A DNA stretch of 64,000 nucleotides. Source: an uncultured Candidatus Rokubacteria bacterium. GTDB lineage: Bacteria > Methylomirabilota > Methylomirabilia > Rokubacteriales > CSP1-6. A program made the translations under genes and the position numbers. This document shows positions 5,531 to 46,957 of this stretch, piece after piece. The stretch spans positions 224,001 to 288,000 of the forward strand of contig CAVWWD010000006.1 in NCBI GenBank assembly GCA_963758635.1, in the 5' to 3' direction. A model generated the notes under the pieces. It made no database searches. It saw only the letters and a program-made list of their open reading frames with translations, and had not been told where the DNA came from. Positions within the stretch are counted from its first letter, which is position 1, and each line of letters begins with the position of its first letter.

Positions 5531-6721
5531 ATGGCCGACGTGTCGTTGAACCTGATGGACCCGGAGTTCGTCGCCAACCCCTACCCGACCTATCACCGGC
5601 TCCGCGCCGAGGACCCGGTGCACCGGAGCCCGCTGGGCTTCTGGGTGCTCACCCGCTACGAGGACGTGGTGGCCTCGCTGCGCGATCCGCGCTTCGGCAA
5701 GGAAGCGATCGCCAGCTACATCGCCGCGCGCCTCGGCTACGCCCCGCCCGGCATCGGGCTGTCCATGCTCGACCGCGATCCGCCGGACCACACGCGGCTG
5801 CGCGGGCTCGTGAGCAAGGCGTTCACCCCGCGCGTGGTCGACGGGCTCCGGCCCCACATCCAGGACATCGTGAACGGGCTCCTCGACCGCGTGCAGGGCG
5901 AGGGCGCCATGGACCTGATCGAGGACTTCGCCTATCCCCTGCCCGTCATCGTCATCTGCGAGATGCTCGGCGTTCCCGTCGCCGACCGTGACCGCTTCAA
6001 GGGCTGGGGGCTCGACATCGCGCGGGGCCTGGACGGGATCCTGCTGCCCCCGGACTCGGACGTGGCCAAGCAAAGCATCGACTCGCGCCAGGCCCTGGCC
6101 GGCTACTTCCGCGAGCTGATCGCCGAGCGCCGGCAGAGTCCGCGCGACGACATGCTCTCCGGGCTCATCGCCGCGGAGGAGGCGGGCGACAAGCTCAACG
6201 AGAACGAGCTGCTCGCCACCTGCATCCTGCTCCTCGTGGCCGGCCACGAGACCACCGTGAACCTCATCGGCAACGGGAGCCTCGCCCTCCTGCGCCACCC
6301 CGCGGAGCTCCGCCGGCTGCGCGAGAACCCGTCCCTGATCGGCAGCGCGGTGGAGGAGCTGCTGCGCTACGACGGCCCCGTGCAGCGGACCGCGCGCGTG
6401 CCCAGCGAGGACGTGACGGTGGGCGGGAAGACCATCGGCAAGGGCGAGATGGTGATGCCGTTCATCGGCGCCGCCGACCGCGATCCCGCGCAGTTCCCCG
6501 AGCCGGATCGGCTCGACATCACGCGCGGCGACAACCGGCACATCGCCTTCGGGTGGGGGATCCACTTCTGCCTGGGCGCGCCGCTCGCGCGGATCGAGGG
6601 CGCGACCGCCATCAACACGCTGGCGCAGCGGATGCCCAAGCTCGCGCTGGCCACCGACAAGCCCGAGCACCGCCAGAGCCTGACCCTGCGAGGCCTCAGC
6701 GCGCTGCCCGTGACCTTTTAA
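5531..6721 (+). CDS. Cytochrome P450
   Basis: DPPDHTRLR, AGHETT I-helix, EELLRY (ExxR), heme motif FGWGIHFCLG. Confidence 0.95.
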   Translation: MADVSLNLMDPEFVANPYPTYHRLRAEDPVHRSPLGFWVLTRYEDVVASLRDPRFGKEAIASYIAARLGYAPPGIGLSMLDRDPPDHTRLRGLVSKAFTPRVVDGLRPHIQDIVNGLLDRVQGEGAMDLIEDFAYPLPVIVICEMLGVPVADRDRFKGWGLDIARGLDGILLPPDSDVAKQSIDSRQALAGYFRELIAERRQSPRDDMLSGLIAAEEAGDKLNENELLATCILLLVAGHETTVNLIGNGSLALLRHPAELRRLRENPSLIGSAVEELLRYDGPVQRTARVPSEDVTVGGKTIGKGEMVMPFIGAADRDPAQFPEPDRLDITRGDNRHIAFGWGIHFCLGAPLARIEGATAINTLAQRMPKLALATDKPEHRQSLTLRGLSALPVTF

Positions 6722-10134: not shown

Positions 10135-10220
10135 TGGTGCGAGAGGGGGGACTCGAACCCCCACGGGATTGACCCTCTGGATCCTAAGTCCAGCGCGTCT
10201 GCCAGTTCCGCCACTCTCGC
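10135..10220 (-). tRNA. tRNA-Leu (anticodon TAG)
   Basis: GCGAGAGTGGCGGAACTGGCAGACGCGCTGGAC-TTAGGA-TCCAG, long variable arm, GGTTCGAGTCC, encoded CCA end; usual position upstream of tig. Confidence 0.97.
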
Positions 10221-33297: not shown

Positions 33298-36127
33298 TCA
33301 CATCAACGGCGTCAGCTGCCGGATGTTCAGTTGCGCGGCGATGAAGGTCAGGACGTCCACGTGCGTGCGGGCACTGTGGGCTTCATCCGACCGCTCGGCG
33401 AGGAAGACCGGCGCGTCTGGGCCATAGTGCTCCTGCAGCTCCGCGGCCATGCCGTAGGTCTGGTAGGGCTCGACACGATCGTCCAGCCGCCCGGTGGCGA
33501 GCAGCAAAGGTTTGAGTAGCATCTGTCTACTGCGAAGCTCTGCCACGTGGTGCGCGGGGGACCAAGCCTGGAGCACCTCCATGTCCTGGGGAGACTGCTG
33601 GAGGTCTCCCGCCGCGTTGTGGCGGAACCCGAAGTCGTCCCACGCGGATCGGCCGAAGACCCCGTTCTCCAGGAACCCGGGAGGATCGCTCACCGGCATC
33701 TCGGCCACGAAGAGATCGATGGCCTGCGGCGCCTCGACCATAGCGGCCAGGGTGTGCATCCCACCGTACGACCGTCCCGAGGCGACGATGGGCGTATCGG
33801 GGAACTCTTGCTTCAACCGCTCCGCCGCGCCCGCGATGTCCTCGAGCGTCGCGCGACGGTGGAGCCTGATGTCCTGGTCCTGCCACCGGAGGCCGAACTC
33901 ACCGCCGCCACGGACGTTCGCGATGGCCACCGCGCCCCCGAGTTCGAGGACCAGTTGGAAGATCGGTTTCTCGTCCCACGTCGGCAGCGTGGGGGCACCG
34001 ATCGCGCCGTAGTAGTAGAGGTACACGAACGCCGGTTTCGTGCCACGGCGGGTCATCAGCTGGATCGGCACCTGCGTCCCGTCTGCGCTCCGGAACTCAT
34101 GCCGCTCATACTTCACGTCGTTGCCCCCCCGGCAGAGTAGCGCTTCGCGACCAAGTGGGGCGATCGCGAATTGGTCGCTCAAGTCGACGGTGAGCGTCTG
34201 CCTCGGCGTCGCGATACCTTCGTAGGTGAAATAGGCCCTGCCGGAATCCTCATTGCCCGTGAACTCCGACAGCGTGCCGTGGTCGTCCGGGGCCCCAGCG
34301 TCCGAGGGCCTCCACGTGTGGACGTCTCCCGTTCTCCAGGTTAATGAGCCGCACCTCGTTCTCCAGGGGCGGCGTGAGGTACTGAAGGGCCAGAAAGGAC
34401 CCGACCCGTTGCGCCCTGATCAGCACGTTGTGGGGATCCGGGGCGACAACACGAGTGGGCTCCGTCCTCGGATCATCGAGATCGACGGCGATCACGGCGA
34501 AGTTGTTGGCGGTCTGCCCGTCGCAGGTGCTCGCCCTGAATAGGGCCCGGTTCTCGTGGACCGTGATGAAGTGCCCGAGCACTCCCTCGCTGGACGAGAA
34601 CAGGCGTGTCACCGTCCCGCCGTCTCGGCGGTCCACGAGATACGCGGCGAGCGGGATCTCGGCCGATCCCTGGACTCGATAGGCGATGAACCTGTTCCGA
34701 TCGATCTCGTAGATGCCGTAGTCGGCGTAGTTCGGCCATTCAGGGTTCGTGAACTCCACCGGATCGTCCGGCGTCCGCCCTGCGGCCTGGGAGATGGAAC
34801 GGTACCGGATCTGCTTGCCTGGCGGGTACGCCGGCTCCCCTCCGAGCGTCGGGACAGCCGAGTAGTAGAATCCGTTCGAGTCCCGACCCCAGTACACGGC
34901 TCCCATCCGCAGCTGCACCTCGTTGCCCTCGATCCGCTCCCTCCTGCCGAGGTCCATGACGCTCCAGAAGGACACGTCACCGTCCTGACGCTTCCGGGCA
35001 TATGCGACTTTCCTGGTGTCGGGGCTCAGCCGGAAGTCGACGACTGGCCCGGCCGCGGCACTGACCAGCTCCTGCCGCGGCCCCGACGCGACCTGCCACC
35101 ATAGGGCGTCATTCTCGATGAAGAGCTCTCCGGCCGGGCAGTGGAAGCGCCTCGGAGGATTCTTCGGGATCAGCTCCATCGCGCGCAGCTCTATGTCTCT
35201 CCTCAAGCCGCCCTCGGGGAGCGCCCGCGGCTGCCTCCTCAAACCGTCGATGGGGTTGGGCAACGCCGCTCCGGCGCCGAGCCCCGCCTGCGGCACGCCG
35301 TTGAGCCACTCGGTGCGTCGTGCCCGGTCCAGCGCGGCCCGGAAGAGCGGGCACTCGTCTCTGAGGATCCCGAAGAGCTTCGTGGCGAGATCCCTCCCCG
35401 CGACAGTGTCACTGGGATAGTGGAGACCGGCTCGCTCACGGTTGACGGCGACGTTCTCAGCGCGGTCCATGTGGTCGTCGCGCCCACTGCGCAGATACTT
35501 CAGGATCGCGCCCATGAGGTACATCTGGGTCGAGTGGCCGCTCGGATAGGCGGGGTGGCCGGGGAGCGGGATCGGAGGGGCCAGATCGGGATCGAGGAGC
35601 CAGGGCCGGACCCGGTTGAAGCGCTCCTTGAAGTACATCACCGCGGAGCCGGCCAGGTGCAGGCCGGCGACCACGAGCTCGGTCGTGAGGGGATGCGAGG
35701 TCGGCGAGAAGTGCAACTGGTCGAACCAGTATCCGACCATGACGGAGCCTTCCTGCTCACGGCTGATCTTTCCGAAGTGGTCCCGTCTCGAGTCCTTCAT
35801 GCGACGCAGCGTGTCGAGCTCGCTGTCGATGAGGTCGGGCATGAACGGACGGACCAGGTTGTCCCGGTTGTGGGTCCAGGTTGCGGAGGCGTACAGCTCC
35901 TGCTTGTACAGCTCGGCACGAAAGTCGGGATCCCAGAATACCCACGGGATCTCGGTCGCTCGACGTTCCGGGAGGACGTGCATCCCCGCCATCCTCAGCG
36001 CGAAGGCGGTCGCCGTGGCGGTGGCGGTTGCCATGGCGGTCGCCGTGGCCGTGGCGGTGGCGGTGGCGGTAGCCGTCGCGGTGGCGGTGGCCGTGGCGGT
36101 GGCGGTCGCAGTAGCTGTGGCTGTCAT
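33298..36127 (-). CDS. Fusion of an N-terminal (Thr-Ala)n tract, a PAP2/vanadium-haloperoxidase-type domain and an S9A prolyl oligopeptidase (single +1 indel at about 34329)
   Basis: GGAGGAG RBS; KERFNRVRP, PAYPSGH, RERAGLHYPSD; beta-propeller (LSPDTRKVAY); ANVRGGGEFG, GRSYGG, DDRV, EAH. Removing one G in GGG joins ORFs 34250-36127 and 33298-34182 (about 942 aa). Confidence 0.8.
36005..36127 (-). repeat. Coding dipeptide repeat M(TA)15M(AT)4A
   Basis: Encoded with mixed codons (ACA/ACT/ACC/ACG; GCC/GCT/GCG/GCA). Confidence 0.9.
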
Positions 36128-36167
36128 GGTCTCCTCCGTCTTCTGGCCAGGATGTTCAGGAGCAGGC

Positions 36168-36851
36168 TCACGGCCGCTCCCACTCGGCCCGTGCTTCTCC
36201 CAGGGCGGTCATGAACTTCGGGCAATCCCTTTCAGGATTTCGTAGCATCTGCACGGCAAGCCCGCAACCGGCCGTCGTGTCGCTCGAGTAGTTGAGGCCC
36301 GCCCGCTCGCGATTCAGGGCGACCTCCTGGGCCCGGGCGCGAATTTTCTGCTCGGCGTCCCGCGGCGCCAGCTCCGTCAGCACCAGGGCCATGAGGTGCA
36401 TCTGCGTCGAGTGACCCCCGGGGTAGGACGGAAGCCCGGGCACGGGGATCGGCGGGGACAGATCGGGGGCGAGGATCGAGGGCCGCACGCGATTGAACCG
36501 CGCCTTGAAGTACGTGGCGACGGAGCCGGCCAGATAGATGCACGCGTGGAGCAGCTCGTTGGTTCGCGGACGCTCGCTTGGCGTGAACTTCAGCAGCTCG
36601 TACCAGTACCCGATCATGGTCGCCGCGTATTGCTCCTGGGAGATCGCGCCCACGTGCTCGTCCCGCACCTTCCTGAGGGAGAGGAGATCCTCGACCTCGC
36701 CGCGCGTGCTGTCGTTCCAGGCATCCACCATGCCGTCGCGCCGCTTCGGGTCCTTCCAGGTCGGAGTCGCGAAGAACTCCGCCTTGTACAGCTCCGCCCG
36801 CAAATCGAGGTTCCAGTTCTTTCGGAGAAACTCCGTCTCGACCTTGGCCAT
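36168..36851 (-). CDS. Stand-alone PAP2-family protein with a degenerate active site
   Basis: KARFNRVRP, YPGGHS, RERAGLNYSSD (His to Asn); clear paralog of the downstream PAP2 domain; AAGGAGG RBS. Confidence 0.85.
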   Translation of the reverse strand: MAKVETEFLRKNWNLDLRAELYKAEFFATPTWKDPKRRDGMVDAWNDSTRGEVEDLLSLRKVRDEHVGAISQEQYAATMIGYWYELLKFTPSERPRTNELLHACIYLAGSVATYFKARFNRVRPSILAPDLSPPIPVPGLPSYPGGHSTQMHLMALVLTELAPRDAEQKIRARAQEVALNRERAGLNYSSDTTAGCGLAVQMLRNPERDCPKFMTALGEARAEWERP

Positions 36852-36888
36852 GGTGTCCTCCTTGCGCGTGGCTCGCTGCTGACGCCGG

Positions 36889-39647
36889 CTACTCGGGAAG
36901 TCCGGCTTGCCGGAGAGCGTCGATGTAGGCGCCGAGCTCCGGCTCCCGCAGCGGATACCATTGCCGGAAGCCGGAGAGTGTGAAGGCCCGATCGATCTGC
37001 AAGAACTCGCGCGCCATCTCCCGCGCCTCCGCGAGGCGGCCGAGATGGACGAGCGTCGCGGCCAGGAAGCGGAGATTCACCGACCACCGCGGGTTCTCGC
37101 GCCGCGACTGGAGGCCGAAGGCGAGCGCCTCGTCGTATTTCCCGCACAGCATGGCCGCAAAACCCGAGACGCCGGTGAAGTAGAAGCCGAGCGGGTCGAA
37201 CGGGCTCAGGCGGAGGGCGTAGGCCTCGCGATCGAGGGCCGCCTTGGCCTCGCCGACGTAGCAGAGGGTGATGCCGCTCAGGCCCCAGGCCATCTGGGAG
37301 TTCGGGTTGAGCGCGAGGGACCGCTCGAAGAGCTGCAGCGCGCGGGGGCACTCCTTGTCGATGAACGAGGCGGCGTGCGCGCTGACGGCGAGCGCCCACG
37401 CGTCGTCGGGATCGCGGTCCAGCGCCGCCTGAGCCATCCGGCCGACCTCGGGCCTCTCGGTGGCGGCTTCGGCGGCGGTCACCAGCCCTGGCCGAACTTC
37501 AACAGATACCACCACGCGCGCCAGGCGTACGCGGCGGCGAAGTTCGGGTCGAGGGCAATGGCCTTCGCGAGGAGCTCGCCCGCCTGGAGGAACTCGTCGG
37601 GGGACAGGCGGTAGAGCAGCGTGAAGGCACGCAGCACGCAGTCGTAGGCGTCGAAGCTGTCGGGATGCTTCTGGAGGGCCCGCTGCGCCTCGGTGATGCG
37701 CAGTGTGCTCTCGAGGGTGCCGACGATCCGCGAGGTGATCCGATCCTGGAACTCGAAGACGTTGGCCAGCGCGCCGTCGTAGTGGTCGGCCCAGATCGTG
37801 TTGCCGGCGCGAGCGTCGATCAGGTCGGCGGTGACCCGCAGCTGCGACCCCGCCTTGCGCACCGTGCCCGTCACGACGTAGCCCACGTTGAGCTCGCGCG
37901 CGATCTGTCGGAGGTCCGCGATCTTCGACCGATAAACGAGCGTCGACGTGCGCGAGATGACGAAGAGCCATCGGATGCGCGAGAGGGCCCCGATGATGTC
38001 CTCGGTGATGCCGTCGCCGAAGTACTCCTGGCCGGGGTCCCCGCTCAGGTCGCGGAAGGGCAGCACGGCGATCGAGGGCCGGTGAGAAACGGGCGAGGTG
38101 CTGAGCACGAGGACCTGATTCGGGCGCGGTGGTCCCTGGACATCCGAGACGTTCGCGCTCGAGCCGCCCGAGAGGCCCGGCCGCCCCGTCACGAAGGGCA
38201 CCGCCGAGGCGGTGACGAGCATGGTGCCGGGGGCGATGCCGGAGGCGAGACGATTCACCTCGGCGACGGCCTCCGCCTGATCGGCCGGGTGGAGCGGCTC
38301 TCCCGCTGGGCCCGGCCCCGTCCGGCACTCGGTGACGTGGATGGCGGCCCGCGTGGACATGGCGATGGGGCCCGCCGTCTCGGCGGGTCCGACGGCCCGC
38401 TGGATGGAGAGCGCAGCGTGGGCCGCCCGGCTCGCCCCGTCCGCCACGTCGGCGGGAAAGCGGCCACCACGCGAGTGTCCGTGATCTCGGCGGGCACGCC
38501 GCCGAACGCCCGGACCTTGTCCAGGGCGACGTTCAGCGCGTGGCTGACCTGGGCCGCGCGAGGCGGACATCGGCGGCGACTCGATCTCCGCCCAGAGGAA
38601 GGCGACGGGCCGACGGACGGCGGCCGTGTCGACGTGCCGGCTTCCCCGGGCCCCGGGCGCGGGCGCCGGATCCGGTCTCAGTCCGTACTTCTCGAGCCGG
38701 TAGCGGAACGTGTTGCGAGGAATGCCGAGGAGCGCGGCCGCCCGGGACAGGTTTCCCGCCGCCGCCTCGAGCGCCCCCGTGAGCCGCGCGCGTTCGAAGT
38801 CACCGACGCTCTCGCGCAACGAGCGATCGGCGTCACGCGGCACGATGACGTCTCTCGCCGGCGCCGGCGCGTGGCCCCGGAGGTCGAGGTCCGCCCGGCT
38901 GATCGACGGACCCTCGACGAGCATCGCGACGCGCTCCATGAGATTTGCCAGCTCGCGCACGTTCCCCGGCCAGGCATGGGCTTCGAGCGCGGCCTTCGCA
39001 TCGGGCGCGAGTCGCTTCGGCGCGAGCCCGTACTCGGCGCACAGCTTGCTGAGGAAATGCTCGGCGAGCAGGGTGATGTCGCTGGGACGCTCGCGAAGCG
39101 GCGGCAGCACGACGGGCATGGTCGACAGGCGGTGATAGAGATCCTCGCGGAAGCGGCGCTCCCGAGTCGCCGCACCGAGCTCCTCGCTCGTCGCAGCCAG
39201 GATCCACACGTCCAGCGGCTCGGCCCGTGTGCTCCCAAGGCGCCGCACCGTCCGGTCCTCCAGCGCCGTCAACAGCTTCGCCTGCAGCGAGACCGGCATC
39301 GCCGCGATCTCGTCGAGGAAGAGAGTCCCGCCATTGGCACTCTGAAAGAGCCCTGGCTTGCCCTGGCGGGCGTCGGTGAATGCCCCTCGCTCGAACCCGA
39401 AGAGCTCCGCCTCGAGCAGCGTATCCGGAATGGCGGCGCAGTTGATCGGGACGAACGGCTTGCTTCCGCGAACGCTGGCGCGGTGGATGACGCGGGCGAG
39501 CAAGCCCTTACCGGTACCGGTCTCGCCGAGGATGAGAATCGGAGGGAGGCGTCCCGAGGACCGCTGATGCTGGAGCAGCCTGCCGATCTGGGCTCGGATG
39601 GCCGAGATTCCCGCGCTCTCTCCGACCAGATCGGCCAGTGGCGGCAT
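36889..39647 (-). CDS. sigma54-dependent AAA+ activator fused to a Fis HTH, a degenerate cyclase-like domain, a TolB-like domain and TPRs (frameshifted)
   Basis: GETGTGK, ELFGFERGAFTDA, TLFLDEI, WPGNVREL, GNLSRAAALLGI, SIAVLPFRDLSGD..YFGDGITEDII, TPR ALDPNFAAAYA; indels near 38460-38550 and 37480. Confidence 0.85.
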
Positions 39648-39708
39648 CCATTGGCCATGGTAGTCCCCCGATATGAGAGGGGCAAGGTCGCTGGGAACGA
39701 GCCCATGC

Positions 39709-40374
39709 TCAAGCGCGCAGGGCGAGCAGTTCATAGACTTCGACCGGGTTGATCCGGCCGCGGACCGGGAACCATCCTCGCCGGCGCGCCTCCACCCGAT
39801 CGCTCAGCAAGGCCTGCATCTGGCCGCTCATGAGGATGGACGTGCCGAGGTACCGGTTGAGATCCTCGAGGCGTGACGCGACGTTGACGGTGTCGCCCAC
39901 CACGCCGTACTTCCACTTTCGCGGCGATCCCACGGGGCCGGCGAAGACCTGGCCGCTGTGCATCGACACGCCGATCGGCTGCCTGACCCGCCGTTCCGCC
40001 TCCGACCACCCGTCGCGTCGACGAAGAGCGGCCTGCATCTCGACGGCGCTCACCGCGGCATGCCACGCATGGTCCGGATCGTGCGTCGGCACCCCGAACA
40101 CGGCCAGGATCCCGTCCCCCACGAAGTCCTGGACCACGCCATGGCTCGCCATGATCACGTCGATCATGACGGTGAGGTAATCGTTCAGAAAGGCGGCCAT
40201 GTGTCGTGGCGCCACGTCCTCGGCCATGGCGGTAAACCCGCGAAGGTCGGCGAAGAGGATCGATACCGGCACGACCTCGCCCTCGGTGGCGGCATCTCCC
40301 GAGCCGGTATGCTCCGCGGCCTGCATAAGATTGTCTCGATGGTCTGCATCGGTCTCGAGTCCGGGTGCCTTCAT
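39709..40374 (-). CDS. Stand-alone class III nucleotide cyclase
   Basis: SILFADLRGFT, FVGDGILAVFG, GDTVNVASRLE, VRGR; GGAGAGG RBS. Confidence 0.9.
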   Translation of the reverse strand: MKAPGLETDADHRDNLMQAAEHTGSGDAATEGEVVPVSILFADLRGFTAMAEDVAPRHMAAFLNDYLTVMIDVIMASHGVVQDFVGDGILAVFGVPTHDPDHAWHAAVSAVEMQAALRRRDGWSEAERRVRQPIGVSMHSGQVFAGPVGSPRKWKYGVVGDTVNVASRLEDLNRYLGTSILMSGQMQALLSDRVEARRRGWFPVRGRINPVEVYELLALRA

Positions 40375-43057: not shown

Positions 43058-43844
43058 TCAGATCGCGGCGTGCAGGAGCTCTTCGCTCCTATCCATCTCC
43101 TCCCGCGCCTTGGCGATCATCCGATCGACGTCGTCGGGGGGATCTGGATCCCGTCGAGGGTCCAGCTCCCGTCGATCGCGTGGCGCTCGGAGAGGTCTCC
43201 GAGGCCCGGCGCACAGGCCGAACGATGTTCTCGGCGAGCTGGACCAGCTTCCGCGCGGCGAACCGCAGCGATCGGGGTGCCACCTCCGCCAGTTTCAGGC
43301 CCTTGGCGTTCCACCTCGTGAGGGAGGACGCTTGCCGCCGAGCGCAGGCACGGGGATCGTGTCGACCACGCTCGGGCAGGCCCCATCCGACGAAGCGATG
43401 CGAGAGACCACTGATTTCATCGGCCGATCTGCCCCACCATTGCTCGACCGTGATCACGAGCCGAGCTCCTCGGGCTGAACAGCTCAAGAAGGGCTCGCTC
43501 AATGCGAAGCCCGTGTTGGCAAGCCGTGGCAGGCAGCCGACGCGATATGGCTGCCCTCTCACGTTCCATGTCCGGGCCAACGAGAGCGGACCATGTCGTG
43601 GAGCGGACCAGGCATAGGCGCCCTATATCCTGCTCGTCGATGGGCCTGCCCGTGAGCGCAGACTAGGCCGAAAGTCACCGAAGAAGAGGAGCTTGTTAAG
43701 CTTCACGAGCCCGAACCCGTGTCGCTCTCGAGAGATCGACGCGAGATAGAGCACGAGCTCGCGCAGACGCCCATCATCGACGATGGGGTGGGCCTTGCGC
43801 GCCTGATATGGCGTGGTCCTTCGTTTGAGAGGGATGCGCGCCAT
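43058..43844 (-). pseudogene. Panacea/SocA (DUF4065) antitoxin-like gene, degraded
   Basis: ELVLYL...VKLNKLLFFGDF, then out-of-frame LTGRPI and HGP, and a later LSERH..DGSW-like segment. Confidence 0.55.
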
Positions 43845-43901
43845 GGCGTCAACTATGGCAGGCCGGCCCACGCAGCGTTTCCAGCGGTGTCGACCGAAGG
43901 C

Positions 43902-45215
43902 CTAGTCGGCCGCCGCCGCCACGCCCGCGGTCACCCGGGCCGGGAGGCGCAGCGTGAAGGTGCTCCCGCGGCCGGGCGCGCTCTCGACGGTGATGTCGCC
44001 GCCCATCATGCGGCAGAAGCTGGCGGCTGATCGCGAGGCCGAGCCCGGTGCCGCCGAACCTGCGGCGTGGTGGACGCCTCGGCCTGGGAGAACGCCTGGA
44101 AGAGGCGCGCCATCTGCTCCGGAGTCATCCCGATGCCGGTGTCCGACACCGGACGACGATCGAGTCGCCGTCCGCGCCCGCGACCCGGGCGCCGGCGAGG
44201 GTGACCCGCCCGCGCTCGGTGAACTTGACGGCGTTGCTGGCGAGGTTGAGCAGCGCCTGACGGATGCGCGTGGGGTCGCCGTGCATCGAGCCGAGGTCCG
44301 GGCGCGCACTCGATCGAGAGCTCGTTGCCGTTCTTCTCGGCGAGCGGCGCGCACCGTGCTCGCCACGTCCGCGACGAGGGCGCCGACCGCGAACGACTCG
44401 AGGTAGAGCTCCATCCGGCCCGCCTCGATCTTGGACAGGTCGAGGATGTCGTTGATGAGCGCGAGCAGGTGGTGGGCCGCGCGCGTGATCCGCTCCAGCG
44501 GGCTCGACGCTCTCCGCGGCCCCGACGCGCGGCGTCCTCGTGCAGCATGTCGCGTGACGCCGATGATGGCGTTCATCGGCGTGCGCAGCTCGTGGCTCAT
44601 GTTCGCGAGGAACTGGGACTTGTGCCGGCTCGCCTGCTCGAGCTCGTGGAACTGGGTGGCGTTCTCCACCGCGATCGCCGCCTGGGCGGCGAAGGTCTGG
44701 AGGAGGTGGATCTGCCGCTCCGAGAACGGCCGCGGCGCCGCCCGCGCGACCCCGATGGCGCCGATGCCACGGTCGCTCCGCACCATCGGCACGAAGAGCC
44801 CGGCCCGGAACCCGAGCGCGCGCGCGAACCGCCGGGTCAGGTCGGTCACGTTCGGGTCGGTCTCCACGTCGGGGAAGTGCAAGACGCGCTTCTCGAGGAT
44901 CACGCGGCCGGGCAGGTTCGACGCGACGAGGGGGAGCGGGTAGGCGGCGTTCGCCGCCGCCACCGTGGCGGGATCGACGCCGGGGACCTCGGCGAAGTTC
45001 GACGCGGCCAGGCGCACCTGGCCCCCCTCGGCCAGGAACACGTTCGCGAAGAGGCCGTCGCAGAGGCGGATCGCGTGGCGCATGATCGCCTCGAGCACCG
45101 GCCCCGCGTCCCCGCGCGAGCTGGCGATCAGGCGGAGGATCTCCAGCGTGGTCGCCTGCTCGTCCCGCGCCTGGCGGAGCGGAGACGGCTCGCCGGTGCG
45201 CCCCCGCCGCGTCAC
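43902..45215 (-). CDS. GAF sensor histidine kinase (frameshifted)
   Basis: GAF ([22 protein letters not shown]), [46 protein letters not shown]. Confidence 0.88.
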
Positions 45216-46702
45216 CGGCGCGGCGCCTCGCCGGCCGGAGCGGGCGCGATGCTCTGCTCGTAGTCGAAGAGCGTCGTGGAGTTGTAGCGCTGCTTCACCT
45301 GCAGGAGCTTCCCGAACACGTCGCCCCAGTACTGCCGGCGATAGTCGGTGAGAGTCCGCCGCGGATAGTTCTGGTAGACGGAGCCGTTCCAGTACGGCTG
45401 CATCAGGGCCACGAAGCCGTCGAGCCAGGCCACCGCCCGATCCCGCTCCTCGGGATGGAACCAGAAGGAGTCGATGAAGAGGTCCATGTCCACGTCGCGG
45501 TGGATGAACGCGTTGCCCGTCCGCGGATAGCGGTTGATCGTGCCCCCGTAGGGCTCGATGACGATCATGTCGTCCACGCTGGGACGCGTCATGTAGTAGG
45601 CGATGATGCGGCCCCAGTCCGCGGCGGTGAGCGGCCTGGCGATGTACCCGGCCTGCTTGTCCTCCATGGGCACCACGTCCACGGGCGGGATCCCGTCCGG
45701 ATACTCCAGCAGCTTCTGGTTGAGCGCGTAGTAGGAGCCGACCTCGTCGATCTGGAGCGGCTGCACGCCCGGGGTCTGCAGGAGCGGCTTCAGCTCGTTC
45801 AGGCCGTCGTTGCGCGCGCCCACGTACATGCCGCGCATGAGCAGCCACGGGCCGTCCTTCTGCTCGGTGACGATGGTCATGTACCCGAGCCGGTCGGAGG
45901 CGCCCGTGCGCATGAAGCCCTTCTGCATCGCGACCAGCGCGTCCGGCGCGTGATCGAGGCGCCAGCGCAGGCCGAACCCCCACACCGACGGCAGCTCGTG
46001 GAGCCGGTACACGACGTTGATGAGCACCCCGAGGTTGTTGCCGGTGCCGCCCCGGATCGCCCAGAAGAGGTCGGCGGCGTCCTTCTCGTCGGCGATGACC
46101 AGCCCGCGGTCCGGGGTCAGGACGCGCACGGACAGGACGTTGTCGCAGTTCATGCCGAAGGCGCGGGAGGTGAAGCCGTAGCCGCCCCCCTGCATGTAAC
46201 CGCCCACGTAGAAGTCCTCGCAGCCTCCGCCCGGCACGTGCAGGCCGTAGCCGTTGAGCTCGGCGTTGACCTTGCCGAAGTTGGCCCCCGCGCCCACGCG
46301 CGCGGTCAGGGACGCCTGGTCCACGATCACGTAGTCGTAGCTGCTCATGTCGAGCACGAGCCCTTCGTTGACGGAGAAGCCCGCGGTGCTGTGGCCGCCC
46401 GAGCGGCAGGCGATCTTCCAGCCGTACTGGCGGGCCCAGTCGAGGCACTGCCGGATGTCGTCCAGGACCTCGCAGTACGCGATGACCTTCGGAAAGGCCT
46501 GGAAGGCCGGATTCGACTCCTGGCGGTCCTTGTCGTAACCGGGCGAGGTGGGATAGACGAGGGTGCCGCGGAAGCTCCCCTCGAGCGTTTCCACCGCCTG
46601 GCGGTCGAGCCCGAGGCGGGTGAGGGCCGCGGCGTCAGCGCGCCCGAGGGCCTGGAGCCGGCTCTCCTTCGCCTGACGCCATCTGGACTTGAAAAAGGCC
46701 AT
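45212..46702 (-). CDS. FAD-binding oxidoreductase, berberine-bridge-enzyme-like
   Basis: RSGGHS covalent-FAD motif, [28 protein letters not shown]. Confidence 0.92.
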
Positions 46703-46957
46703 GCTGGCTCCTCGTCGCGCGGCGCGGCGGCGGCTCCGCAGCGCCACGCCGTCGAAATCGGCGGCACACCGTGGCTTCGAGCAGGGCGAGAATCGCCTTC
46801 GACCGCGGGGCAAGTCAAGCGGGGGAACCCCCTCCTTGCGCTCCGCGGCGCGATGGCCGATGCTCGGCGCGCGGCACGATGCGCGCGCCGGACGTCAGTG
46901 GTCACGGCGCGACGCTCGGCGGCGCTCGATCCACCGCTCGTCGAAAAGGAGCCTTGC

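Follow-up and report, generated by a model that had tools for sequence, protein, structure and literature searches.

A Rokubacterial locus with a repeat-tailed phosphatase and a TPR sensor appears to be one version of a conserved, undescribed module that looks like an intracellular peptide-coded switch

Four co-oriented genes occupy positions 33298..40374 on the minus strand of the window (the whole 64,000-nucleotide stretch of DNA that was analysed), separated by gaps of 61, 37 and 40 nt. Pfam profiles describe them as a class III cyclase, a sigma54 AAA+/HTH_8/TPR protein, a PAP2 protein and a fusion of PAP2 with Peptidase_S9_N and Peptidase_S9. The ribosome-binding sites AAGGAGG and GGAGGAG, both strong, precede the two PAP2 genes. 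This arrangement, including orientation, gaps and binding sites, had been given in a preliminary description of the sequence and was seen again in full. The features are as follows:

39709..40374, minus strand: stand-alone class III cyclase, accessory (PF00211, 5e-23; best PDB match 2w01)
36889..39647, minus strand: sensor with sigma54 AAA+ (GAFTDA), Fis-type HTH, middle, TolB/FlgO-like and TPR domains
36168..36851, minus strand: PAP2-A, tail-less, with class A acid phosphatase fold, a pseudo-phosphatase
36005..36127, minus strand: N-terminal tail of PAP2-B, M(TA)15-MA-(TA)4, encoded by seven different Thr-Ala hexamers
35279..36004, minus strand: phosphatase domain of PAP2-B, with the three catalytic motifs KERFNRVRP, YPSGHS and NRERAGLHYPSD
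33298..35278, minus strand: S9A prolyl oligopeptidase (POP) fused to PAP2-B, propeller plus hydrolase (best PDB match 7vgb, 4.5e-41)

The reading frames are broken near 37480 and 34328, with a compensating pair near 38557. The short-read check that had been proposed for these indels gave a 215-nt contig with one base fewer at 34328 and otherwise identical, and a second short-read contig covering 35967-36112, and with it the greater part of the (TA)n tract, showed zero differences. Since the orthologues are intact and the short-read contig lacks the extra base, the four genes are real and the frame breaks are assembly errors. The sensor is a single gene split by indels, with intact orthologues of 913-919 aa at the related loci L022, L104 and L105 (72-83% identity to L104 across two frames), and intact PAP2-POP fusions of 929-930 aa are found in L106 and L022. 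GC3 is 0.82-0.93 in the module versus 0.94-0.99 in four flanking genes, which bears out the earlier by-eye impression of a weaker bias. Matches below 1e-24 are patchily distributed, occurring in 15 of 183 genomes of the order, and genomes G031 and G034 carry different alleles at one site, which is empty in six of nine other loci of the genus (the other three are uninformative). The module is probably an acquired cassette; integration linked to a tRNA was rejected, the sole tRNA lying 23 kb off.

The activator motif of the sensor is GAFTDA, and not of the GAFTGA type as first stated. The host genome has rpoN, the AAA+ and HTH domains are present in the sensor, and a search of the window module for a sigma54 promoter consensus gave none. 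A reading of the middle domain as a dead cyclase found little support in HHalign (E 0.1). Outputs of 82 sensors were cyclase in 39, wHTH/BTAD in 15, sigma54 in 6 and partial or other in 22.

The metal-binding and catalytic residues of the cyclase are all intact, and D83, K155, N164 and R168 are unchanged in all four linked copies. The base-selecting position is occupied by Asp, where Cya2 has Glu and adenylate cyclases have Lys; the protein is therefore probably not an adenylate cyclase. It lies upstream of the sigma54-TPR sensor and PAP2-A in three of the four relatives covering that region (L104, L105 and L106) and is missing in L022. The same Asp/Lys signature recurs in 24 of the 25 best matches among Rokubacterial cyclases, which lie almost without exception in long multi-domain frames, and a search of the four genes for a cNMP-binding domain found none. 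Judging from these comparisons, the cyclase is an accessory gene and no fixed part of the system, its odd residues being a common Rokubacterial trait; its absence from the G034 locus and the breadth of the signature speak against its proposed role as core second-messenger partner.

PAP2-A carries PGGH in place of PSGH and R-x5-N, with Asn aligning with the nucleophilic His of 7f18. Its AF2 model (pLDDT 93.6) matched PhoN/PhoC-type enzymes in Foldseek with TM 0.70-0.75, far above haloperoxidases. Asn replaces the nucleophile in 47 of 64 homologues, none of these 47 having a tail, which rules out a sequencing error and upholds the earlier view of an inactive PAP2, here as a conserved pseudo-enzyme. 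In L103 the first PAP2 is of the His type and tail-less.

PAP2-B contains all of K-x6-RP, PSGH and R-x5-H-x3-D. The fold of the fused POP is complete in the AF2 model, with catalytic Ser in GRSYGG, Asp in DDRV and His near the C-terminal end; next to the catalytic Ser stands Tyr or Phe, where classic POPs have Asn. According to the cited sections of PMC12235650, POPs favour short substrates with Pro or an N-methylated residue at P1, and OphP failed to cyclise a substrate with Ala. The POP of the window faces a tail with Ala at alternate positions. The peptidase family differs between loci (S9A, S8, G1, C1A and zincins). Fusion of a tailed PAP2 to its peptidase occurs in two clades, as (TA)n-POP and (SK)5-S8; SK repeats start 10 of 11 S8 fusions, and one PAP2-POP fusion, P0214, lacks a clean tail. 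The zincin-like partners (clusters c2 and c63) have HExxH motifs; Pfam and NCBIfam gave no match and the PDB no convincing one, and 'M36-like' would be a tentative label for them. Kaur et al. describe an 'FGS domain', which is a different one.

A tail of (TA)14-16 is likewise present in L022, L102, L104 and L106, and in the L106 model it is disordered (residues 1-43, pLDDT < 50). Across the wider family, about 42 different repeat units occur among 88 tails. At least two synonymous DNA units were found in 87 of 87 tails, and 84 of 87 begin no more than 15 residues from a Met; on these coding patterns, the tails are under selection at the protein level. The synonymous scrambling, with the matching short-read contig, rules out (TA)n as a DNA slippage artefact. 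The tail occupies the place of the signal peptide in ordinary PAP2 relatives: by a crude hydrophobicity window, signal-like N-termini were called in none of 88 PAP2s and none of 59 peptidases of the system versus 27 of 36 non-system PAP2s. The low-complexity tag of the preliminary description turns out to be the defining, hypervariable element of a far larger family.

Among 81 well-flanked PAP2 loci, 43 had all three of a repeat (N-terminal, perfect, with a 2-4-residue unit), a TPR sensor and a peptidase, 30 had none and 8 had two of three. The linkage of PAP2 to TPR sensor and peptidase, on which the preliminary description had made its system depend, was therefore retained. Nine further Rokubacterial PAP2 loci of the same type all had a tail, and eight had a TolB-TPR gene in the fetched stretch. 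No description of the module was found in the literature searched, Pfam, NCBIfam or PADLOC, in keeping with the earlier suggestion of an undescribed system, and the four genes are apparently a conserved version of a widespread bacterial module. Specific to the present clade are the (TA)n tail with an active PAP2 and POP fusion, the tail-less His-to-Asn pseudo-PAP2 and the sigma54 output. The match between tail period and peptidase family goes with descent: the tree has 6 and 5 changes, which gives too few independent pairs. That C1A loci with tetrapeptide tails arose twice independently is not supported, as their monophyly was not rejected (p-AU 0.61).

The loci L116 (NQG) and L123 (TGH) are 91% identical in PAP2 and 99% in TolB, versus 46-48% in TPR. 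Their divergent DNA block (about 52% identity, flanks mostly 82-100%) begins at the first TPR and stops where the tail ends, which shows for this one allele pair, at the level of the alignment, that TPR domain and repeat were exchanged as a single block; as TPR and tail are adjacent, hitch-hiking can explain the swap. At equal TolB identity the TPR gap was greater with differing tails in four of four bins, the same-tail pairs being mostly related Bradyrhizobium (MG)n loci. L116 and L118, both NQG, have TPRs only 56% identical, and those of L118 and L123 are 51-52% identical.

The best reading, to which we give an even chance, is that the TPR domain recognises the tail, which the peptidase cuts, with a change in transcription as the result. 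It draws on the observed linkage, the motifs, protein-level selection on tails, the lost export signals and the one TPR-tail swap; we infer the binding, the cleavage, the direction of control, the trigger and the phosphatase substrate. The repeat tail would be the ligand of the adjacent sensor's TPR domain, in place or as short pieces, and a dedicated peptidase, in the window the POP fused in cis, would cut it. Altered TPR occupancy would then set the sensor output, sigma54-dependent transcription here and a cyclase or winged-helix regulator in relatives. PAP2-B may be a working cytoplasmic phosphatase that bears the tail and is possibly gated by it, with PAP2-A as a dead subunit damping or scaffolding it. 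On this reading the module is apparently a new type of peptide-coded switch inside the cell. Against it count that the clean swap is a single pair open to hitch-hiking, the low TPR identity of L116 and L118 despite their shared NQG, the descent of the period-peptidase match, P0214 and L103, the substrate preferences of POPs and the lack of a sigma54 consensus in the window module.

Many rhizobia and soil bacteria have TolB-TPR cyclases and regulators, proteins for which ligands are not known. Somewhat tentatively, at slightly short of an even chance, we propose jointly that a tandem-repeat enzyme tail serving as an allele-specific TPR ligand defines a new signalling class, that peptidases without export signals, recruited from at least five unrelated families, act as its switch, that the present clade combines a self-processing chain with a dead-phosphatase regulator, and that the cassette supplies ligands to part of the orphan cyclase/wHTH-TolB-TPR family. 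The module would name a candidate ligand for a subset of these proteins, testable with synthetic peptides in culturable carriers (Bradyrhizobium, Reyranella and Pseudoruegeria). The roughly 42 natural units would give a set of orthogonal receptor-peptide pairs, and in the POP fusion, where a single chain holds both substrate and peptidase, cleavage could be tested most simply.

A protease-activated toxic effector acting against phage or in cell death is unlikely, though the most serious of the alternatives. The TPR domain would sense an invader or stress, the peptidase would strip the tail, and the freed non-specific phosphatase would remove nucleotide and sugar phosphates, with PAP2-A as inhibitor. 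Interchangeable proteases next to one effector are the pattern of protease-effector defence in the cited part of PMC12642450; the catalytic His is retained in 85 of 87 tailed PAP2s, and the patchy spread, alternative alleles at a mostly empty site and low GC3 fit as well. However, when 13 proteins were compared with PADLOC 2.0, the matches were confined to generic cyclase and AAA profiles, with none for the PAP2 or peptidase proteins. The sensor outputs are transcriptional or cyclase and not tied to the protease, and a segment that inhibits a toxin would have no need to be a perfect repeat changing together with the TPR. The neighbours of module loci are for the most part metabolic and transport genes, and such surroundings do not favour the defence module first suggested.

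It is improbable that the tail is a multi-copy pro-peptide whose identical peptides, freed by lysis or export, are read by the TPR sensors of kin as a damage or quorum signal. Tandem identical units would boost such a signal, the diversity of units suits allele-specific codes, and a TPR receptor with a neighbouring pro-peptide is the RRNPP layout; yet PAP2 and peptidase have no export signal, the loci have no conserved transporter gene in common, and di- and tripeptides of common residues make poor private extracellular signals.

Still more doubtful is a borosin-like RiPP, in which the tail would be a core peptide on its modifying enzyme, released or cyclised by the POP. An enzyme-fused precursor with an S9A macrocyclase is the OphMA/OphP layout in the cited part of PMC12235650, the PDB matches include OphP, PCY1 and further POPs, and a SAM methyltransferase adjoins (AM)n loci. 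Against this, 22 of 42 units offer a phosphotransfer enzyme no Ser, Thr or Tyr, which makes modification by PAP2, and with it the peptide-modifying cluster considered earlier, unlikely; the majority of partner peptidases are no macrocyclases, and the fold is that of a class A phosphatase. An amyloid- or silk-like tag that polymerises PAP2 until the peptidase dissolves or frees the assembly is very improbable: GA, GY, GV, NQ and GNx are similar to low-complexity sequences prone to beta structure, but charged units (SK, NEG, DQ) exist, and the same repeat was found in another ORF at none of 84 loci, so that the templating partner of NLR-amyloid pairs is lacking and matching tags in sensor and effector are ruled out.

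Among known systems, the protease-effector modules (MBL, alpha/beta-hydrolase, Pepco, EACC1; cited part of PMC12642450) share one effector, swappable proteases and a nearby sensor; the window module differs in its repeat tail and lack of defence-island context, and the words 'phosphatase' and 'TPR' are absent from the main text of that source. Borosin OphMA/OphP and the S9A macrocyclases POPB and PCY1 share an enzyme-fused peptide and an S9A peptidase, whereas no N-methyltransferase was found in the four genes, the tail is N-terminal and periodic, and one peptidase family can replace another. Class A non-specific acid phosphatases (PhoN, PhoC; PDB 7f17, 2akc, 1d2t) have the fold and the three motifs of PAP2-B in common with the system, but PAP2-B has a tail where the signal peptide would be and a POP fusion, besides a conserved dead paralogue. 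The cyclase resembles the Synechocystis guanylate cyclase Cya2 (best PDB match 2w01) in KYGVVG and an acidic base selector, Glu there and Asp here. PycC profiles of Pycsar/Pucsar match it weakly (6e-22), but the locus lacks a cyclic-nucleotide effector and the cyclase belongs to a common Rokubacterial subfamily. The RRNPP family comprises peptide-sensing TPR receptors (Rap-Phr, NprR, PlcR and AimR). As there, a TPR sensor whose output is either enzymatic or by DNA binding lies next to the gene of a peptide that needs proteolysis, and receptor and peptide seem to co-change. The module differs from RRNPP in that its peptide is a perfect tandem repeat on a phosphatase without export signal, in having its own cytoplasmic peptidase and a sensor with a TolB-like domain, and in its hosts, which are Proteobacteria and Rokubacteria.

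A profile built from 51 PAP2 sequences gave matches on 163 stretches from genomes and 563 from metagenomes, and the best 80 in each set were analysed. Among the matches listed, many PAP2s open with a perfect repeat of 2–4 residues, with units such as MG, MS, GY, GV, NQ, TG, AGN, NEG, TGN, NGGI and HGSS; 88 of these tails comprise 42 distinct units. With L015, L020 and L021 excluded beforehand as a duplicate and as own-genome distant paralogues, 164 loci were tabulated; requiring 2.5 kb or more of sequence on either side left 81, after removal of 82 shorter loci and of the outlier L177. Repeat, TPR sensor and peptidase occurred together within 4 kb in 43 of the 81 loci and none of the three in 30, in a set that includes near-duplicates, with gene calls from a custom script, peptidase clusters defined after the neighbours were inspected, and control-locus peptidases (M23, one trypsin, one Rce1) left uncounted. 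The remaining loci lacked a called repeat (three), a peptidase (three) or a TPR gene (two). The tail-less control PAP2s form one clade, so the 81 loci are not 81 independent events. The module of repeat-tailed PAP2, TPR sensor and peptidase is real and conserved, and apparently undescribed.

Single loci carry, directly upstream of the sensor, a caspase-like gene (L130 5429–6316), a haem peroxidase-like gene (L040 5995–7533) or a second PAP2-like gene (L135 6683–7489). In L016 (9454–14097), a (MG)15-PAP2 lies behind a STAND-like cyclase-AAA_16-TPR gene in place of the TolB-TPR gene; thus, the sensor family can change too. A double-PAP2, haloperoxidase-like protein near wHTH-AAA-TPR genes (L020 5601–7229, contig C1 of G000) is distant from the tailed family.

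The tail is selected as protein, with synonymous DNA variation in all 87 tails, and 84 of the 87 are N-terminal. In none of 84 loci is the repeat shared with a neighbouring gene. By a crude hydrophobicity test, 27 of 36 non-system relatives but 0 of 88 system PAP2s have a signal-like N-terminus, and the tail occupies the place of that segment. Hydroxyl phosphorylation is impossible for half of the repeat units.

Partner peptidases belong to G1 (Pfam A4), papain-like C1A, three S8 clusters, S9A and M10, together with two zincin-like clusters without library matches. The repeat is a dipeptide next to zincin c2 (24/24), a tripeptide next to G1 (24/24) and a tetrapeptide next to C1A (6/6), with mixed periods next to S8 (4 and 4), a correspondence mostly explained by shared descent. 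A second fusion clade joins an (SK)5 tail, PAP2 and an S8 subtilase in one chain (L145 2521–4743; P0185, P0279–P0288), flanked in L145 by two cyclase-TolB-TPR genes. In variant loci (L088 4081–8642, L164, L167), a SAM methyltransferase gene precedes the zincin-like peptidase gene; the (AM)n repeat of L088 and L164 is possibly internal rather than N-terminal.

Across 59 loci compared, TPR identity drops further beneath TolB identity when tails differ, and in the close pair L116/L123 the difference is confined to one DNA block running from the first TPR to just past the tail. However, the clean swap rests on this one pair, TPR and tail are physically linked, same-tail pairs are related loci, and L116 and L118 share a tail, yet their TPR identity is 56%.

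The tail, a cytoplasmic and periodic element that is allele-specific, always has a peptidase nearby and is tied to the TPR. Its simplest account is a ligand-and-clipper switch, in which the tail would be a putative ligand of the TPR and the neighbouring peptidase its putative clipper; judged from sequence, this account, binding and cleavage included, is about as likely as not. A toxic phosphatase unleashed by the protease seems unlikely. Release of the allele-specific tail as a kin signal is improbable. A RiPP is more doubtful again. A role of the tail as an assembly tag is the least credible.

Features of the window are as follows.
33298–40374, minus strand: four-gene locus, in order class III cyclase (39709–40374), sigma54 AAA+/TPR sensor, PAP2-A and (TA)n-PAP2-B-POP fusion
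43623–43871: short ORF without Pfam match, possibly cut by an indel; its LVKLNKLLFF motif resembles Panacea/SocA antitoxins
45212–46813: berberine-bridge-like, FAD-binding oxidase; lies 5 kb upstream and is no recurrent module neighbour
10135–10220: tRNA-Leu, distant from the module

On re-examination, the four genes, their gaps of 61, 37 and 40 nt, the RBSs and a GC3 below the flanks were all as in the preliminary description. The parent assembly has 12 contigs and belongs to an order in which some genomes are labelled Candidatus Rokubacteria; indels split the sensor and PAP2-B-POP genes. The short-read check that had been advised found a contig identical over 215 nt with one base fewer at 34328, and a second contig exactly matched most of the (TA)n tract. 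G034, a genome from a different family of the same order, encodes an unbroken 919-aa sensor and a 930-aa (TA)16-PAP2-POP protein. Because these copies are intact and the short-read contigs agree, the frame breaks are assembly errors, and the repeat and fusion are genuine.

Eight other loci are close relatives (L022, L102–L107, L110), four of them with (TA)14–16 tails (L022, L102, L104, L106). The suspected inactivity of PAP2-A was borne out: of 64 homologues, in a set biased towards the query's own clade, 47 have Asn in place of the nucleophilic His (His in 14, three undetermined), and none of these 47 carries a tail. Its modelled fold is that of a class A acid phosphatase. In the model of the L106 fusion, a disordered tail leads into the PAP2 domain, which a loose linker joins to a complete S9A peptidase; most of the fusion's nearest unfused relatives have signal-like N-termini, judged by eye.

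The cyclase, proposed as a core partner, is an accessory recruit: PAP2 linkage to TPR and peptidase partners was upheld, but the cyclase is not a fixed member. It lies upstream of the sensor and PAP2-A in L104, L105 and L106 and is missing from L022, while contigs of four relatives end before that position. Across the order, 80 of 183 genomes encode a related cyclase, in a tally that includes G023, flagged as unpublished, and no PAP2 lies near the own-genome paralogue. In L022, a near-perfect sigma54 promoter consensus (about 5813–5828) lies on the strand of a divergent small cyclase gene. The closest structure is Cya2, a guanylate cyclase that its E488K variant turns into an adenylate cyclase (PMC5995499); the window cyclase has Asp at the position corresponding to E488. 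A possible parallel is Asp94, which lines the pocket for the pyrimidine in the model of a Pycsar uridylate cyclase (10.64898/2026.08.12.744502). From these residues, GTP or UTP is the likelier substrate over ATP. Asp and Lys are common to 24 of the 25 best related cyclases, nearly all in frames of 549–710 aa. This large Rokubacterial subfamily (window 39709–40374, L227–L250; base selectors QDFIGD ... KYAVLGD), mostly of multi-domain proteins, is possibly a cGMP or cUMP signalling branch.

Matches below 1e-24 were found in 15 of 183 genomes. Within one genus, the allele of G031, (NL)n with S8, differs from that of G034, (TA)n with POP, although both occupy one shared site between housekeeping E1 dehydrogenase and metE-like genes (L018 2903–16083, L015 6184–19987), which is empty in six of nine other loci examined. 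Module neighbours are for the most part metabolic genes, and PADLOC recognised no PAP2 or peptidase protein among those tested.

The preliminary view that the system is undescribed agrees with the literature searched, which covers few subscription papers and gives no account of the module. It includes 10.1101/2025.01.14.632903; "PAP2" is absent from the main text of PMC8195603, PMC7159879 and PMC12642450. The neighbourhood could be listed in the tables of source data that accompany the two eLife papers. Against that literature, the module is a new category and the window locus a distinct variant of it. Its (TA)n tail would present Ala at every second residue to the fused S9 enzyme, in an X-Ala register once Met is removed. 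X-Ala pro-regions are removed by dipeptidyl peptidases; the (TA)n tail is likewise X-Ala, whereas the window enzyme is S9A, not S9B.
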